Shown: positions 22,672-58,913 of the stretch, one piece after another
How positions within the stretch are numbered: position 1 is the first letter of the stretch
Layout: each line of letters starts with the position of its first letter
Source of the DNA: a virus
Lineage: Duplodnaviria > Caudoviricetes
IMG/VR virus record: IMGVR_UViG_2936514734_000001
Span: 96,001-160,000 of that record
Length of the DNA stretch: 64,000 nucleotides
Direction: 5' to 3' (one strand)
Made by a program: the position numbers and the translations under genes
Notes under the pieces: model-generated
Databases searched by the model: none
Seen by the model: the letters and a program-made list of their open reading frames with translations, nothing else
What the model was told of the DNA's origin: nothing

Positions 22672-23400
22672 TTATTTAGTAATAGAAACTACATTAAAGC
22701 CTAAATCTTTTGCTGTTTGTTCATTAAACTTTTCATCTAAATGCATGCAATAAACTTTATGTCTTAATTCATAAGGAATTAGTTTAGTTAGTTTACGTAG
22801 AGATAAGTGTACATTTCCTTCATAATCCGCTTGGCATGTATCTTGATAAAAATAATCGATATGTCCATTTTCTAAAGCTTTAAGAATATCTCCGGGAATC
22901 ATGTTAGAATCTCCACTATAATAGATTGTTTTGTCCTCAGAAAATAGAACATAGCCAAAGCAATTTAATTCTTCCGCATGTTCAACAGAGATTGGGCCTA
23001 ATCCTTTTAACCCTACTTGATCAAAATTAAAGTCATATGCTAAGCCTAACTCATAGCTGTCATAAGTATTTGATTCTACCCCTGTTAGTCTAAGAATTTC
23101 CCCAAGTTCTTCTACAATCTGTGTTGGTACAAGAACTTTCACTTTTCTTTCAAACATAGGAGCAATACTGTAATAGCTATAAAATATTAAATCTCCTAAT
23201 GAACCAACATGATCAGGATGTAAATGAGTAATTAATACAGTGATATTCTTTACTCCATCTAATAAGTTGGATTCTATTAAGCGGCTAAATGTCGAGCTAC
23301 CACAATCAATTAAAAGTAAATGCTCACCCTTCTTAATATAGGCACAGTTGTTACCTTCTTTTGTATTAAACGCACTACCTCTTCCAATAAAATTAAGCAT
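22672..23400 (-). CDS. MBL-fold phosphodiesterase, Apyc1 (anti-Pycsar)-like
   Basis: Start at ATG 23400 with AGGAGA RBS; GSAF, NN, LIDCG, THLHPDHVG, YSGD, VHLSL, CMH. Confidence 0.75.
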   Translation of the reverse strand: MLNFIGRGSAFNTKEGNNCAYIKKGEHLLLIDCGSSTFSRLIESNLLDGVKNITVLITHLHPDHVGSLGDLIFYSYYSIAPMFERKVKVLVPTQIVEELGEILRLTGVESNTYDSYELGLAYDFNFDQVGLKGLGPISVEHAEELNCFGYVLFSEDKTIYYSGDSNMIPGDILKALENGHIDYFYQDTCQADYEGNVHLSLRKLTKLIPYELRHKVYCMHLDEKFNEQTAKDLGFNVVSITK

Positions 23401-23896
23401 TGTTTTCTCCTTCTGTCTTTTCAAAACTTAGATATTGTAAACCAAGTCCAAATTGAGTATTATCTATAATTACTCCTTTGATTTCTTGGGTCTGATAAAA
23501 GTCTCTATCGTAAATTTCCTCCCATTCGCCAACCATATGTTGTACGGTTTCTTGTGAATCTTTGCACCCTGATAAGAACTCCATTTGCTGTAAAATCTGC
23601 TTTCTCCAGTGTTCCTTGTAATTGGGTTGGAGAATGATTGTGTGGTCGATAATCATATCCGTATCATACTCAACTGGATCAAGCGGGTGATTACATTGAT
23701 AACTGTGTGGACGGAAAACAATTAGCACCTCTGAATCGTTTATGTGTTCATCAACATAATCTATTGAACTTCCACCCCATTTCAGTAGCTCCTCAATAAA
23801 ATCCTTTTGCTGGTCATCAGGATCATAAAGAGAATCCTCTATGACTTTTATGACTTTACCTTTATCACCAATAATTAAGCGTATATAAGCAGGCAT
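23393..23896 (-). CDS. Hypothetical protein
   Basis: RBS, operon. Confidence 0.6.
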   Translation of the reverse strand: MPAYIRLIIGDKGKVIKVIEDSLYDPDDQQKDFIEELLKWGGSSIDYVDEHINDSEVLIVFRPHSYQCNHPLDPVEYDTDMIIDHTIILQPNYKEHWRKQILQQMEFLSGCKDSQETVQHMVGEWEEIYDRDFYQTQEIKGVIIDNTQFGLGLQYLSFEKTEGENNA

Positions 23897-43795: not shown

Positions 43796-44605
43796 TCATA
43801 CAGCAACATCAAAATATATTTGTGGATGTTTCTCATAGTTTTCTAAACGGAAGTCATCTGCTGTAAAACTATAAAAATCTTTCTTTTCTGGATTAATCCA
43901 TAGAGTAGGAGCACTATACGGCTCTCTCTCAAGAATCTCTTTTGCCTGTTCTAGGTGCTTGTTATAAATATGGCAATCGCCTATAACATGGACTAGCTCT
44001 CCTGCTTCTTGTCCAAGATGACGAGCTACCATATGTAGAAGTATTGAATATTCACATACATTAAAACTGTTTGCTGTTATAAAGTCTTGTGAACGTTGTT
44101 TAAGTATGAGATTTGTTTTCTTTGAATCAGACCAGAACTGTAAGTGATGGGCACATGGAGGAAGATTCATCTTTGTAAGATCATCAACGTTCCACATTTC
44201 AATTACTGCTCTTCGAGTGAATGGATCTCTCTCAAGTTCTCCTAAGACATAATCCATTTGATTGTCATATCCATACACAGGTTTAGCTACTTGTGCGCCG
44301 TAAGCTTCACCAATAGAACCTGTTTCATCTGCCCACTCGTCCCAAATTTTTGCCTTCATATCGTTTATGTTGTTGGAACGTTTACGATAAATCCAATCAA
44401 CTTCATCAAAGATAGTCTTTAGTGGTAATGGGCGTGTTGTTGGTGCAGGAAATTCTTTAGATAAATCGTAGCGGTTAACGACACCAAAAATTCGTTTTGT
44501 CATGATTGGTGTTCCATCTTTCCAAACAGCTCGATTATCTGGAGTCCATTCTTGCGCCAATATGCGTTCTAATGTCTCTTTTTGATATTCATCTATTAAA
44601 GCCAA
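43796..44605 (-). CDS. thyA: Thymidylate synthase
   Basis: IWDEWAD, AYG, LPPCAH, QRSQD, GDCHIY. Confidence 0.95.
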   Translation of the reverse strand: MALIDEYQKETLERILAQEWTPDNRAVWKDGTPIMTKRIFGVVNRYDLSKEFPAPTTRPLPLKTIFDEVDWIYRKRSNNINDMKAKIWDEWADETGSIGEAYGAQVAKPVYGYDNQMDYVLGELERDPFTRRAVIEMWNVDDLTKMNLPPCAHHLQFWSDSKKTNLILKQRSQDFITANSFNVCEYSILLHMVARHLGQEAGELVHVIGDCHIYNKHLEQAKEILEREPYSAPTLWINPEKKDFYSFTADDFRLENYEKHPQIYFDVAV

Positions 44606-45126: not shown

Positions 45127-46749
45127 TCAATCCCAGCGATCAAGCTTATAAGTTGCTGTTCCTGTTTTTGTTGTAACGCGAATTAAAGTATTCCAATTTG
45201 AGCCATATTGTAATCGAACGCCACAAGCTGAAGCTTCGTCATAGCCTTCAATAGTTTCATTTCGAGAATATGCTTCAATAGTTGAACGAATCGCACGTAA
45301 TTCTGATTTAAGAGTTTCTGGGAACAACGCATTGCCTGCACCTTGATGTCTATTGTCTTTTGCACCTTCGATAATAAAGAACACACTTTTACCTTGATGT
45401 GCATTTTCATCATGCCACATTGAAGGCTGTAATGTGATTCCTGTAACCTTACGATAACCAGGAGAAAGATTCCATCTGTTAGCTGGTGATCCACCATTAT
45501 ATACATACCAAGAGAATGGATTTCTTTTTTCCTCTGTATCCCATTTTAGAATAGGTGGTGCATCTTCATGTACAGCCGTAAGAATAGCAGAGTAGTTGTC
45601 GCTTACACTCTTAACGTTATATTCAATTTCTTCAGCAAATGGAAGAACTGTTTCAGAAAACTTCTTCCATGTCATTGTAATTGCAGGCATGTCCATTTTA
45701 GGAAGCGCTTTTTTACCTTTCGTTTCAAGGTGCGAGAACATTCCTCCGCTTTTCACCGCTTCTTTTTTACCTTTTGGTGTCCATAATGTTTCTAGTTCAT
45801 CTAAACGTGCAAAACGACGAGCGAATGATTTCTGAATACCTAGTTTCTCAACAATTCTTTCTGCCTCAGCAATATTACCTGCAGAAGGAGCTGCTTGTGG
45901 ACGCTGATATTGTAAAGGATGCATTTTATCTGCAAATCGACGACTCACATCTTCAAATTCCATACCTGAAGCAATGTCATCAAGTAGAGTACCAATCATT
46001 GAACTTCTGATATGACAGAAACCTACAGGAGCTGTAGCAACCGCTAACCATACAAGGTTTTCTTTGTTACGGTAGTTTTTAATAGCAGCACGATGCTCAA
46101 TTAAGCTTAAGAACCATTCAGCTACACCTAAGCATTTTTCTGAGCGGTACAGAGATTCAGTCTTAAGAAGTGCAACTGCTTGTTCAACTACCTCTTGGGA
46201 GTAATCTAATAATGCATTAATTAACATTTTAAAGTCTTCACGCTTTTCTGCGCTGAGTTGTCTTGCGTTTAATAGATTAGGACGAAAAACTAACTCTTTT
46301 GGTAGTGATACAGATAAATGCTCCCACTCACCTGTAAATGGTTGTCCTAACGTTTGGAACTCAGAATAAAATACACCACTTACTTTTTCTTTGAGTACTA
46401 ATTCTTTCATATTATAAACAGACTCAACAAAGAAAGATGGTGTTTCATTTTCATCCCATAGTGCGGATTGCATTTCTCCACTATCAGAAATCGTTACTAA
46501 CGAACCGTATCTTTCAATAAAATTCTTACAACATCTACAATTGTAATGCTGTCTTGCTTCCTCTGGTAATCCACCTAGATAAGCTTCATACAGGCCTGTA
46601 GCATTTGTTGTGAATAGTTTTGTTCCTGCATTAACTAGTGATTTAAATCGTTTACGAACAGAGCTTAAAAACTCATTATATTGATCATCTTCATTTACAT
46701 ATGTACCGCTTGCCATGTCGTTATGAATACTTAATTTAATTTTACTCAT
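45127..46749 (-). CDS. Conserved hypothetical protein (540 aa)
   Basis: HYNCRCCKNF, YQRP motifs; function not recognised. Confidence 0.75.
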   Translation of the reverse strand: MSKIKLSIHNDMASGTYVNEDDQYNEFLSSVRKRFKSLVNAGTKLFTTNATGLYEAYLGGLPEEARQHYNCRCCKNFIERYGSLVTISDSGEMQSALWDENETPSFFVESVYNMKELVLKEKVSGVFYSEFQTLGQPFTGEWEHLSVSLPKELVFRPNLLNARQLSAEKREDFKMLINALLDYSQEVVEQAVALLKTESLYRSEKCLGVAEWFLSLIEHRAAIKNYRNKENLVWLAVATAPVGFCHIRSSMIGTLLDDIASGMEFEDVSRRFADKMHPLQYQRPQAAPSAGNIAEAERIVEKLGIQKSFARRFARLDELETLWTPKGKKEAVKSGGMFSHLETKGKKALPKMDMPAITMTWKKFSETVLPFAEEIEYNVKSVSDNYSAILTAVHEDAPPILKWDTEEKRNPFSWYVYNGGSPANRWNLSPGYRKVTGITLQPSMWHDENAHQGKSVFFIIEGAKDNRHQGAGNALFPETLKSELRAIRSTIEAYSRNETIEGYDEASACGVRLQYGSNWNTLIRVTTKTGTATYKLDRWD

Positions 46750-53209: not shown

Positions 53210-53278
53210 ATAATAGCAATCAACTAAGGGGAATTGAACCCTTTTCGACTACCGACAAGTCTCTTAGTTGACCTTGAG

Positions 53279-53349
53279 TGATCTTAACAGGAGTTGAACC
53301 TGTGAGTGATAGTGTTTATCTATCGCGTTGACCGCTTCGCCATAAGACC
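53279..53349 (-). pseudogene. Cys-like tRNA with non-canonical anticodon loop ATAAACA
   Basis: Intact stems; D and T arms resemble tRNA-Cys at 53881. Confidence 0.6.
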
Positions 53350-53962: not shown

Positions 53963-54040
53963 TGGTCCGGGTGGAAAGACTTGAACTCTCGGCCTCCTGC
54001 TCCCAAAGCAGGCGCTCTAACCAAACTGAGCTACACCCGG
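53963..54040 (-). tRNA. tRNA-Pro(TGG)
   Basis: Cloverleaf, CCA. Confidence 0.9.
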
Positions 54041-54046
54041 ATTTTT

Positions 54047-54220
54047 TGGCGTGCACGGGCTGGAATCGAACCGCCCTTCCACTATGGTCTATCCTATTCT
54101 GACAATAGGGGTTTGTCATAGCTGATCTCTCGCCAACCTAACCGTATCCTTTCCTTCATGTTGTCAGATGCATGAAATACTCCAACGCTTCGTGAAAGGT
54201 TAGCTTCGCCTGAGCTGCAC
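54047..54220 (-). ncRNA. 174-nt tRNA-like RNA with acceptor, T arm, CCA and large structured insert
   Basis: GTGCA/TGCAC-G-CCA, GGTTCGATTCC loop, internal pseudoknot-like pairing. Confidence 0.6.
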
Positions 54221-54231
54221 ATATTAAATAA

Positions 54232-54305
54232 TGGCTCTTGATTGACTTGAACAATCGACCTTTCCCTTATGAGGGGAACGCTCTAACCAACTGAGCTAAA
54301 GAGCC
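54232..54305 (-). tRNA. tRNA with CAT anticodon (Met or Ile2)
   Basis: TTCCC-CTCATAA-GGGAA. Confidence 0.8.
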
Positions 54306-54596: not shown

Positions 54597-54669
54597 AGGT
54601 GCGCCTTACAGGAATTGAACCTGTCCTCGCCCGCGCGGTTGGGCAGTACTACCGCTATACTAAAGGCGC
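54597..54669 (-). pseudogene. Gly-like tRNA with 8-nt non-canonical anticodon loop
   Basis: Intact acceptor, D and T arms; loop AACCGCGC. Confidence 0.6.
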
Positions 54670-55221: not shown

Positions 55222-55305
55222 TGGCACCCATTGAAGGAATCGAACCTCTTGGGAATGGTTTTGGAGACCATCGACTTACCTCTCGTCTTTAACCCTCTAA
55301 TGGAT
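55222..55305 (-). tRNA. Second tRNA-Trp(CCA) with ~9-nt insertion before the D arm
   Basis: ATGGT-CTCCAAA-ACCAT, GCCA end, 11-nt acceptor-D connector. Confidence 0.65.
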
Positions 55306-57269: not shown

Positions 57270-57974
57270 TTATTTAAGTTTTAATACCTGTCCGATGCTA
57301 AGTAAATCAGACTTTAAGCCGTTGAGAGATTTTAGCTTTTCAACTGTCATCTTGTGGTCTTTAGCGATTCCCCAAAGAGTGTCACCTTTTACAACTTTGT
57401 AATTCTCACAAGTTGAAGGTGAACCTGATACTGTTTTACCAGTTAAAGCATGAACAATTGCATTACATGCTCTTTCGATGCCACCGCTAACCATTAATTT
57501 GTTCATATCATCTTTATTATCGATGAAAGCAACTTCAATTAAGATAGCCGGTGCATTAGTACTATTGATAAAACCAATTTTCTTACCATCTTTAGGTCCG
57601 CGATCTGTCGTACCTAATTTAGCAGAAAGTTCTTTTGAAACTTTAGCAGCTAAATCTTTTTGGTTATAGAAAAGAACTTCAGTACCATGTCCTTTTCCAT
57701 TACTAGCGTTTAAATGAATACTAACGTCTAAACGACCAGATGCAGAGTTTTTGTTGCAGTTCTTAACTGCATTAGACCAAACAGCGGTTTTAGTTCTACC
57801 TACATCATCAGTACAGATTTTCACATTTTGACCAACTGATTTTAACTGCTTCTCTAATTCCTTAACAATTGTACGAGCTACTTCGTGTTCTTTATAGCCA
57901 CATCCACTTGCTCCAGGTATGATTGCGTTATGACCAGCGGTTAATGTAATAAGTTTATAACTCATATTAGCCAT
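57270..57974 (-). CDS. N-acetylmuramoyl-L-alanine amidase (Amidase_3) plus one LysM
   Basis: AGH, E, SIHLNA, AILIEVAFIDN, YKVVKGDTLWGIA. Confidence 0.93.
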   Translation of the reverse strand: MANMSYKLITLTAGHNAIIPGASGCGYKEHEVARTIVKELEKQLKSVGQNVKICTDDVGRTKTAVWSNAVKNCNKNSASGRLDVSIHLNASNGKGHGTEVLFYNQKDLAAKVSKELSAKLGTTDRGPKDGKKIGFINSTNAPAILIEVAFIDNKDDMNKLMVSGGIERACNAIVHALTGKTVSGSPSTCENYKVVKGDTLWGIAKDHKMTVEKLKSLNGLKSDLLSIGQVLKLK

Positions 57975-58067: not shown

Positions 58068-58913
58068 TTATGCTACACGGATTTTTTGACCAACAGTGAT
58101 TTTATTAATGTCTTGAATATCAGGATTCAAAGCTTTAATTTTATCAACTGTTGTATTGTACTTAACTGCAATTGCAGAAACTGTATCACCTGCTACTACC
58201 GTATAGTACACCGCTGTAGACTTCACTTTTAACACTTGACCGATAGTGATAATGTCTGAAGTTAAACCGTTTAATTGTTTAAGTTCATCTACAGTCATTT
58301 GATATTTATTAGCGATAGACCAAAGAGTATCACCTGCTACAACTGTATATGTGTCAGTTGCAAGAGATGGTTCAGTAACACCAGCAACTTTACCTGTTAA
58401 GGTTTTAACAATTGCTTGAGCTACTTTCTGAACACCACCAGGGCCCATTACTTTGTCCATATCAGATTGAGTATCAATGAAGCCAGTTTCGACAAGAATA
58501 GCCGGAGCATTTGTTGAGTTAAGGAAACCAATTCCTTGTCGCTCTTGAGGACCACGATCTTTATAACCCATTGCAGTAGCAAGGTCTTTTGATACTTTAG
58601 CTGCAAGTTCTACTTCGCTGTAATAAAGAACCTCACAACCAGTTCCACCACCAGCATTTAAGTGAATACTTACATCTAAACGTCCTTCTTTTGGAAAGCT
58701 ATTAGCTTTTCTTACAGCGTTAGTCCAAACTTCAGTTTGAGTTGTTCCAATGTCATCTGTTACAACTTCTACGTTTTGACCTACTGCCTTCATCTGCTTT
58801 TCAAGTTCAGCAACAATCAATCTAGCTACTTCATGTTCCTTGTAGCCACATCCGTATGCTCCTGGAACAATCGCATTATGGCCCGCTGTTAAAGTGATTA
58901 AATTATAACTCAA
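58068..58913 (-). CDS. N-acetylmuramoyl-L-alanine amidase (Amidase_3) plus two LysM
   Basis: Paralog of neighbour; two YTVVAGDT LysM repeats. Confidence 0.93.

Follow-up and report, generated by a model that had tools for sequence, protein, structure and literature searches.

A candidate gene for a non-decoding, tRNA-shaped RNA in the tRNA arrays of two phage lineages

What is encoded by the 174 nt that lie between two tRNA genes of a large phage, begin and end with the strands of an acceptor-like stem, and terminate in CCA? The element was analyzed within a stretch of 64,000 nt (hereafter the window) taken from a complete virus record of 239,374 bases. It is located on the minus strand at window positions 54047-54220, and its ends were placed exactly there by a covariance model. 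The minus-strand array in which it lies includes 17 tRNA genes (ARAGORN), 16 of which passed the Rfam tRNA threshold. The spacers at the element are short (11 nt after the upstream tRNA-Met and 6 nt from the CCA to the downstream tRNA-Pro):

54232..54305, minus strand: tRNA-Met (CAU), upstream neighbour; ARAGORN; 71.5 bits with the Rfam tRNA model
53963..54040, minus strand: tRNA-Pro (UGG), downstream neighbour; ARAGORN; 68 bits with the Rfam tRNA model

The genes near the array include RecA, SSB, thymidine kinase, thymidylate synthase, dUTPase and two Amidase_3-LysM endolysins. This gene set, combining recombination, nucleotide metabolism and lysis by Amidase_3-LysM proteins, is in keeping with a large phage that infects a Gram-positive, Bacillus-like bacterium. 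When covariance model R1 was applied to the window, no second copy of the element was found. Promoter and terminator counts around the array were no higher than in shuffles, with no site flanking the element, and in the public-run search the RNA-labelled runs matched only about 8 % of the words.

A first-pass annotation had described the element as a novel RNA with the top half of a tRNA and a pseudoknotted insert, and all of the sequence strings that it cited are present on the minus strand within the element. The novelty held in our searches: ARAGORN reported nothing, and none of the Rfam 15 models (tRNA, tmRNA or any other) matched there, whether at its gathering threshold or, under permissive filters, at E ≤ 10. 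The family was likewise missing from every annotation seen, and none of the GenBank records that carry the RNA annotates it.

Homologues of 179-182 nt were found in nine Tsarbombavirus records (Bacillus cereus-group phages of the Herelleviridae), in uncultured relatives and in kin of the window phage, and all of them lie within tRNA arrays. By blastn, the 3' 100 nt of the element matched nine Bacillus phage records at 78-82 % identity, all from the genus Tsarbombavirus (carriers TsarBomba, QCM8, PBC6, BC01, MarvelLand, BC-T25, McCartney and Emiliahah). When 50,697 phage records were searched in this way with three different family members as queries, only these nine were recovered. The Tsarbombavirus copies occupy an unannotated gap of about 185 nt in the tRNA array, from tRNA-Asn or tRNA-Ser to tRNA-Gly, with spacers of 3-7 nt. 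One further variant was identified by pattern scans on uncultured viral and metagenome contigs (loci L007, L008, L010, L015, L017 and L020). More diverged copies were found in three relatives of the window phage that were reached via RecA (L054, L055 and L056), where they lie in a tRNA-Ser/tRNA-Cys interval and score 103-107 bits with R1. Pattern scans with four motifs over viral, metagenome and genome contigs revealed no lineage beyond those known; 21 other loci from these scans were rejected by nhmmer as chance tRNA pairs. Four further phages gave no hit with model R1, namely Edson, vB_BceM_WH1 and SP-15 of Bacillus and Sundance of Brevibacillus.

The window phage and TsarBomba have only 18 ORFs in common at E<1e-5, so that the RNA gene is present in two otherwise very different phage lineages. 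The common proteins are ordinary nucleotide-metabolism, recombination and lysis proteins, together with an MBL-fold protein and one of unknown family; no evident partner of the RNA was seen among the 18. The MBL-fold protein (window 22672-23424, minus strand) has 250 aa, matches the anti-Pycsar Apyc1 family at 57 bits and shares 48 % identity with its TsarBomba counterpart. As a separate matter of annotation, the BC-T25 record (MN150686.1; L005:198-587) has no tRNAs annotated in this region, and a 'hypothetical protein' CDS (QEG04137.1) overlaps the 5' part of the RNA element (L005:520-698). The extension of this CDS into the element is probably a mis-annotation.

When ten distinct sequences were aligned with the covariance model, the consensus was a single nested fold, whose 8 helices comprise 53 pairs. 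In this alignment 94.9 % of the paired cells hold a pair, against 36-51 % in controls in which the partners were slid by 1-3 columns, and 18 pairs are changed on both sides, a number reached by none of 500 shuffles; a smaller alignment of eight sequences gave 96.2 % and 14 pairs, and as both alignments were fitted to the covariance model, these counts favour the model's own structure. The compensatory changes are also visible in the raw sequences, apart from the fitted alignment. The view that the element is conserved as an RNA was thus borne out. The minimum free energy of the single sequence is unremarkable (z = -1.44), and the case for the element therefore rests on comparison and not on folding energy.

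Comparison of the homologues shows a predicted four-way junction composed of an acceptor stem, a T arm, an arm I placed in the D loop and an arm II at the position of the anticodon arm. The parts are as follows, in order from the 5' end of the RNA:

54216..54220, minus strand: 5' strand of the acceptor stem, GUGCA (RNA 1-5), pairing with 54051-54055
54212..54214, minus strand: CUC (RNA 7-9), 5' strand of the 3-bp helix that stands where a tRNA has its D stem, pairing with GAG at 54127-54129
54205..54211, minus strand: conserved unpaired AGGCGAA (family form AGGNRGAA), just ahead of arm I, where a tRNA has its D loop; AGG invariant in the homologues
54132..54204, minus strand: arm I (RNA 17-89), a long irregular hairpin in the D-loop position (helices 3 and 5)
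54161..54168, minus strand: UCUGACAA in loop I (RNA 53-60), the complement of the loop II segment
54127..54129, minus strand: GAG, 3' strand of the putative D-stem relic (RNA 92-94), within a conserved GAGAUC; invariant
54078..54125, minus strand: arm II (RNA 96-143), at the anticodon-arm position; helix 6 99 % paired
54098..54105, minus strand: loop II segment UUGUCAGA (RNA 116-123), complementary to loop I
54057..54076, minus strand: T arm (RNA 145-164), GGGCGG / UUCGAUU / CC-A-GCCC, with a bulged A160 and a canonical 7-nt T loop
54047..54055, minus strand: 3' strand of the acceptor stem, UGCAC (166-170), discriminator G171 and encoded CCA (172-174), pairing with the 5' strand

The top half of a tRNA described earlier (acceptor GUGCA/UGCAC followed by G-CCA, and a canonical T arm) was confirmed and is conserved in the homologues. 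The acceptor stem (helix 1) is 100 % paired in the ten sequences with one-sided changes only (U.G/U-A, G.U/G-C and C-G/U.G); pair 2-71 varies only between U.G and U-A, and pair 3-70 only between G.U and G-C. Upstream of G1, UAU occupies positions -3 to -1 in all ten homologues; bacterial RNase P prefers a U at -1. GCCA is encoded in eight of the ten homologues and GCCG in two Tsarbombavirus records. The T arm (helix 8) is 98 % paired with two pairs changed on both sides. In L054 and L055 it has no bulge, a G.A mismatch being found instead, and its 3' side is one base shorter. By our count, acceptor and T arm stack to about 12 layers (5 bp, a G opposite a G or A, and a 6-layer T stem; in the window G6, at 54215, faces G165), and this number is kept in L054 and L055 despite the exchange of the bulged A for the mismatch. 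In tRNAs, an acceptor/T dimension of about 12 layers is what RNase P, the CCA-adding enzyme and EF-Tu read.

The CUC/GAG helix (helix 2) is invariant in the ten sequences and thus gives no covariation signal, for or against. The likeness of GCUCAGG...GAGA to a tRNA D arm leads us to read it as a D-stem relic. The AGG segment may touch the T loop in the manner of tRNA G18/G19. In arm I, a lower helix is formed by 17-30/77-89 and an apical hairpin by 44-50/61-67; pairs changed on both sides number six in helix 3 and four in helix 5. The UUCAUG/CAUGAA hairpin proposed before corresponds to helix 5, whose stem covaries in the relatives. Single nucleotides (A95 and A144) link arm II to the D-stem relic and to the T arm, respectively. 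Arm II begins with a proximal stem of about 9 bp, which an internal loop separates from the apical stem CCUAU/AUAGG. In the L007 variant its stem sequence is replaced (GUGGUGAG/CUCAUUAC) with pairing retained, and in L054 and L055 the apical stem (helix 7) reads C(A)CUG/CAGG, with a compensatory change from A-U to G-C. The pseudoknotted insert did not survive this comparison. The local UGACAA/UUGUCA hairpin on which it was built (UGACAA at 54112-54117) is specific to the window and has no counterpart in any relative, so that the H-type pseudoknot is unsupported; CCUA and UAGG, its other component, are indeed conserved, though what they form is simply the apical stem of arm II.

At their tips, arm I and arm II carry loops that are complementary to each other. 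In the window, UUGUCAGA in loop II, which the first-pass annotation had paired locally with UGACAA, is the exact 8-nt complement of UCUGACAA in loop I (shuffle p about 0.0005 or less). The corresponding loops are UCUGU/GCAGA in Tsarbombavirus (shuffle p about 0.03) and UCUGA/UCAGA plus a U.G in L054 and L055 (shuffle p about 0.005). The core UCUG/CAGA is kept in all three lineages and, being invariant over its four nucleotides, carries no covariation signal itself. When the loops are anchored on this core, the fifth pair covaries: Tsarbombavirus has U.G where the window and L054/L055 have A-U. The stems that bear the two loops have entirely different sequences across the three lineages. A loop-loop (kissing) contact between the tips of arm I and arm II is therefore likely, as judged from the sequences. 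A rough layer count of ours gives about 24 layers for arm II with the D-stem relic and about 30 for arm I. Two arms of comparable length that leave the same junction make an intramolecular contact sterically plausible, and the sequence alone fits pairing within one molecule and pairing between molecules equally.

Natural variants were collected from assembled contigs of four public runs, and close variants of the window-type element were found in three of them, from different studies. All ten variant sites fall at RNA positions 13-90, in arm I or the junction. Among these contigs, arm II, the T arm, the acceptor stem and both apical loops showed no variants. C22>U and G84>A occur together in two runs, and C22>U occurs alone in a third, leaving a U.G pair. 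U44>G is accompanied by G67>U with arm I pairing kept, so that two variant pairs compensate (C22/G84 and U44/G67), and C47>U and C61>U lead to wobble pairs. The C22/G84 pair also sets the register of the lower arm I helix. CTAACC and GGTTAG, which the first-pass annotation had paired, can indeed pair, yet it is an adjacent register, GCUAACCU/AGGUUGGC, that is conserved. Two of the runs (X9 and X12) cease to resemble the window at 54042, five bases beyond the CCA, and continue with a different tRNA; the element thus behaves as a unit with a tRNA-like boundary.

Several familiar identities were considered and rejected. The element resembles a canonical tRNA in its array position, spacer lengths, U at -1, T loop, discriminator with CCA and ~12-layer stack, but lacks an anticodon arm, a 7-bp acceptor stem and a normal D arm. 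A decoding tRNA was rejected, as neither U33 nor an anticodon loop of 7 nt is conserved in arm II and both RF00005 and ARAGORN were negative. An intron-containing tRNA or a small ribozyme was discarded, as there is no Rfam hit and removal of the arms leaves no tRNA. The agreement in length with phi29 pRNA (174 nt) is coincidental; there is no Rfam match and the context is different. Complementarity that could suit a T-box or anti-Shine-Dalgarno targeting is weak and not conserved. Protein coding was excluded on either strand, with no ORF and with compensatory substitutions in the stems.

On balance, we think that the element is probably the gene for a non-decoding, tRNA-shaped stable RNA. The RNA would be co-transcribed with the phage tRNA array, cut by RNase P before G1 as for a tRNA, and trimmed at its 3' end, with repair by the CCA-adding enzyme where needed. 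In the fold that the comparison shows, the acceptor stem and T arm keep the ~12-layer stack and the T loop by which tRNA-handling enzymes recognize tRNAs, the D loop bears the inserted arm I and the longer arm II stands in place of the anticodon arm. The complementary arm tips probably pair with each other, and an RNA so paired has no free anticodon. Such a molecule could offer the top half of a tRNA and its CCA to a host or phage tRNA-binding factor without decoding, and may act as a mimic, decoy or scaffold and not as a translation adaptor. Candidate targets that we considered are host toxins or defence enzymes acting on the acceptor end, tRNA-processing or modification enzymes, and translation factors.

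An adaptor which is aminoacylated would make different use of the same end. It would be charged by a synthetase that does not depend on the anticodon (of the Ala or Ser type) and would then serve in ribosome rescue, like tmRNA, or in aminoacyl transfer away from the ribosome. The encoded G73-CCA end, the intact acceptor/T minihelix and a long arm adjoining the T arm, as class II tRNAs have, are all consistent with this, as is G3.U70, the main alanine identity pair, which is present in six of the ten homologues. The first-pass annotation, which had seen an echo of tmRNA in the layout and inferred an RNA able to be charged or to interact with the ribosome or SmpB, had noted no G3.U70. This is correct for the window, which has G3-C70, but not for the family. 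Since Emiliahah, L054 and L055 share G3-C70 with the window, alanine identity is not conserved. The likeness to tmRNA (SsrA) consists of a tRNA-like acceptor/T module with CCA joined to a non-tRNA body, and of the G3.U70 pair where it occurs. The element is at most half the size of tmRNA, however, and has no P2 helix with a ring of pseudoknots; its body is formed by two arms on a four-way junction. No reading frame is conserved and no stop triplet falls in one alignment column across all ten sequences, the tmRNA models of ARAGORN and Rfam were silent, and no SmpB gene was found in the phage genome. The tmRNA-like reading was accordingly abandoned. The acceptor stem, moreover, has just 5 Watson-Crick or wobble pairs, and we regard a charged adaptor in general as unlikely.

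The two remaining alternatives turn on the arms. If the loops paired between molecules and not within one, the RNA could form rings or chains with the tRNA-like ends facing outward, as a structural scaffold, and the rings of phi29 pRNA are built by intermolecular loop pairing of this kind. Both loops are complementary and conserved in every lineage, and the sequence is as compatible with this arrangement as with an intramolecular one. The rough layer count makes pairing within the molecule plausible for arms of one junction, though, and the element matches neither pRNA nor any other Rfam family, so that such a multimer seems to us improbable, to the same degree as the adaptor. Lower still is the probability that we give to a decayed tRNA, kept for the processing signals of its acceptor/T module, which would direct RNase P and 3' trimming of the array, with arms that have no function. 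The D-arm-like GCUCAGG...GAGA, a 3' strand in which we read seven nucleotides at acceptor positions, and the other odd tRNA-like pieces in the array would suit such an origin. Functionless arms, however, are hard to reconcile with stems that stay paired through many changes on both sides, with loops that remain complementary across lineages with so few ORFs in common, or with natural variation that spares arm II and the loops and is compensatory in arm I. Processing sites are, besides, already supplied every few bases by the neighbouring tRNAs. The reading as a non-decoding, tRNA-shaped stable RNA remains the one that we prefer.

The bacterial Y RNA YrlA (RF02553) is likewise a non-decoding RNA with a tRNA-like module, and some of its members are phage-encoded (PMC4201824). 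The tRNA-like domain of YrlA, however, lies inside the molecule, and it is the Ro60-binding stem that its ends make up, whereas the ends of the element form an acceptor stem with CCA. There was no RF02553 match at the element, and no TROVE/Ro60 gene was found in the 239-kb phage.

The element most resembles T4 species 1 RNA (rnaC), a likeness of architecture. The T4 gene and its alignment partners are:

L036:1409-1547, minus strand: T4 rnaC; homologues at L058-L061

This RNA is a discrete late transcript in T4, confirmed by Northern blot (PMC9697503), and its role has been called unknown (PMC3014915, PMC12685909). When T4 rnaC was aligned with four diverged Tevenvirinae homologues, two of which lie directly between annotated tRNA genes, a number of common traits were observed. 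As with the element, the gene is inside a phage tRNA array, and there is a canonical T arm near the 3' end with an acceptor-like stem stacked on the T stem to about 12 layers (CGRUUCG/CGUUYCG, with R-Y covariation). A 3-bp helix (AGG/CCU) right after the 5' acceptor strand encloses a long arm I, which is followed by another arm and then by the T arm. At the tips of both arms the loops are complementary over 6 nt (UUGACG/CGUCAA), and in Yersinia phage fHe-Yen9-01 both sides are changed, giving UUGAUG/CAUCAA (shuffle p 0.001-0.02). The rnaC RNA differs from the element in being shorter (139 nt), in having an annotated 3' end UA with no encoded NCCA, a 7-layer acceptor stem that contains tandem U.U, and some 10 nt of linker ahead of arm II, and in its hosts, which are Gram-negative enterics. 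Model R1 scored T4 rnaC at 7.7 bits (E 0.12), below a T4 tRNA, and model R2, applied with filters off to six element loci, recovered ordinary tRNAs only and missed the element. As the covariance models did not detect each other's members, the likeness is one of architecture and genomic setting and not of detectable homology.

In the searchable literature, which is thin in older subscription papers, there was no description of the element RNA or of the pairing between the rnaC loops. Deletion of T4 species 1 RNA is not known to cause a phenotype, which weighs against the reading preferred here; the T4 RNA now gains a comparative partner. The same predicted architecture (the top half of a tRNA and two arms with complementary, covarying loops) is found in unrelated Bacillus and enteric phages, and phage tRNA arrays are usually annotated as tRNAs alone. 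It is conceivable, if rather speculative, that arrays in phages of both Gram-positive and Gram-negative hosts carry recurrent 'capped' tRNA mimics, with arms locked tip to tip and with a specific job, of which T4 species 1 RNA was the first to be seen. If so, a candidate job is the soaking up of a host defence or toxin enzyme which is directed at tRNA and reads the acceptor/CCA end, such as a nucleotidyltransferase or an acceptor-end nuclease toxin; an alternative job is that of a charged, non-ribosomal donor of amino acids. The Bacillus-phage family would then be a second, independent system for a 50-year-old question. Processing, loop-loop pairing and the tRNA-binding target are predictions that are testable in culturable pairs, e.g. 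TsarBomba and Bacillus thuringiensis. A host defence factor or translation factor as target would represent a new phage use of tRNA mimicry.

Other features of the phage were also noted. At window 54598-54669 (minus strand), a tRNA with a four-base anticodon (ccgc) was reported by ARAGORN with no amino acid assigned (Rfam tRNA 43.6 bits), and its anticodon loop may be enlarged. A tRNA-Phe with the unusual anticodon AAA lies at 53278-53349 (minus strand; 46 bits), a partial tRNA-like match below threshold at 55233-55288 (minus strand; 24.5 bits, model positions 9-63), and several unannotated gaps of 135-620 nt occur in the array. The AAA tRNA-Phe, the partial match and the gaps together suggest more non-standard tRNA-like genes in the array. 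Outside the window, a 512-aa open frame contains a match to the PolyA_pol family, to which tRNA nucleotidyltransferases of the CCA-adding type belong (G000:C1:194968-195336, minus strand, locus L062; 87.7 bits). The two endolysins, each with Amidase_3 and LysM domains, are adjacent paralogues (window 57270-57974 and 58068-58913, both on the minus strand). Finally, a 540-aa protein with no Pfam match (window 45127-46749, minus strand) is encoded two ORFs away from thymidylate synthase (43796-44605). With tblastn it was matched in 534 phage records, among them phages of Salmonella, Klebsiella and Rhizobium and Bacillus phage SP-15, and its nucleotide-metabolism neighbourhood hints at a role in DNA modification.
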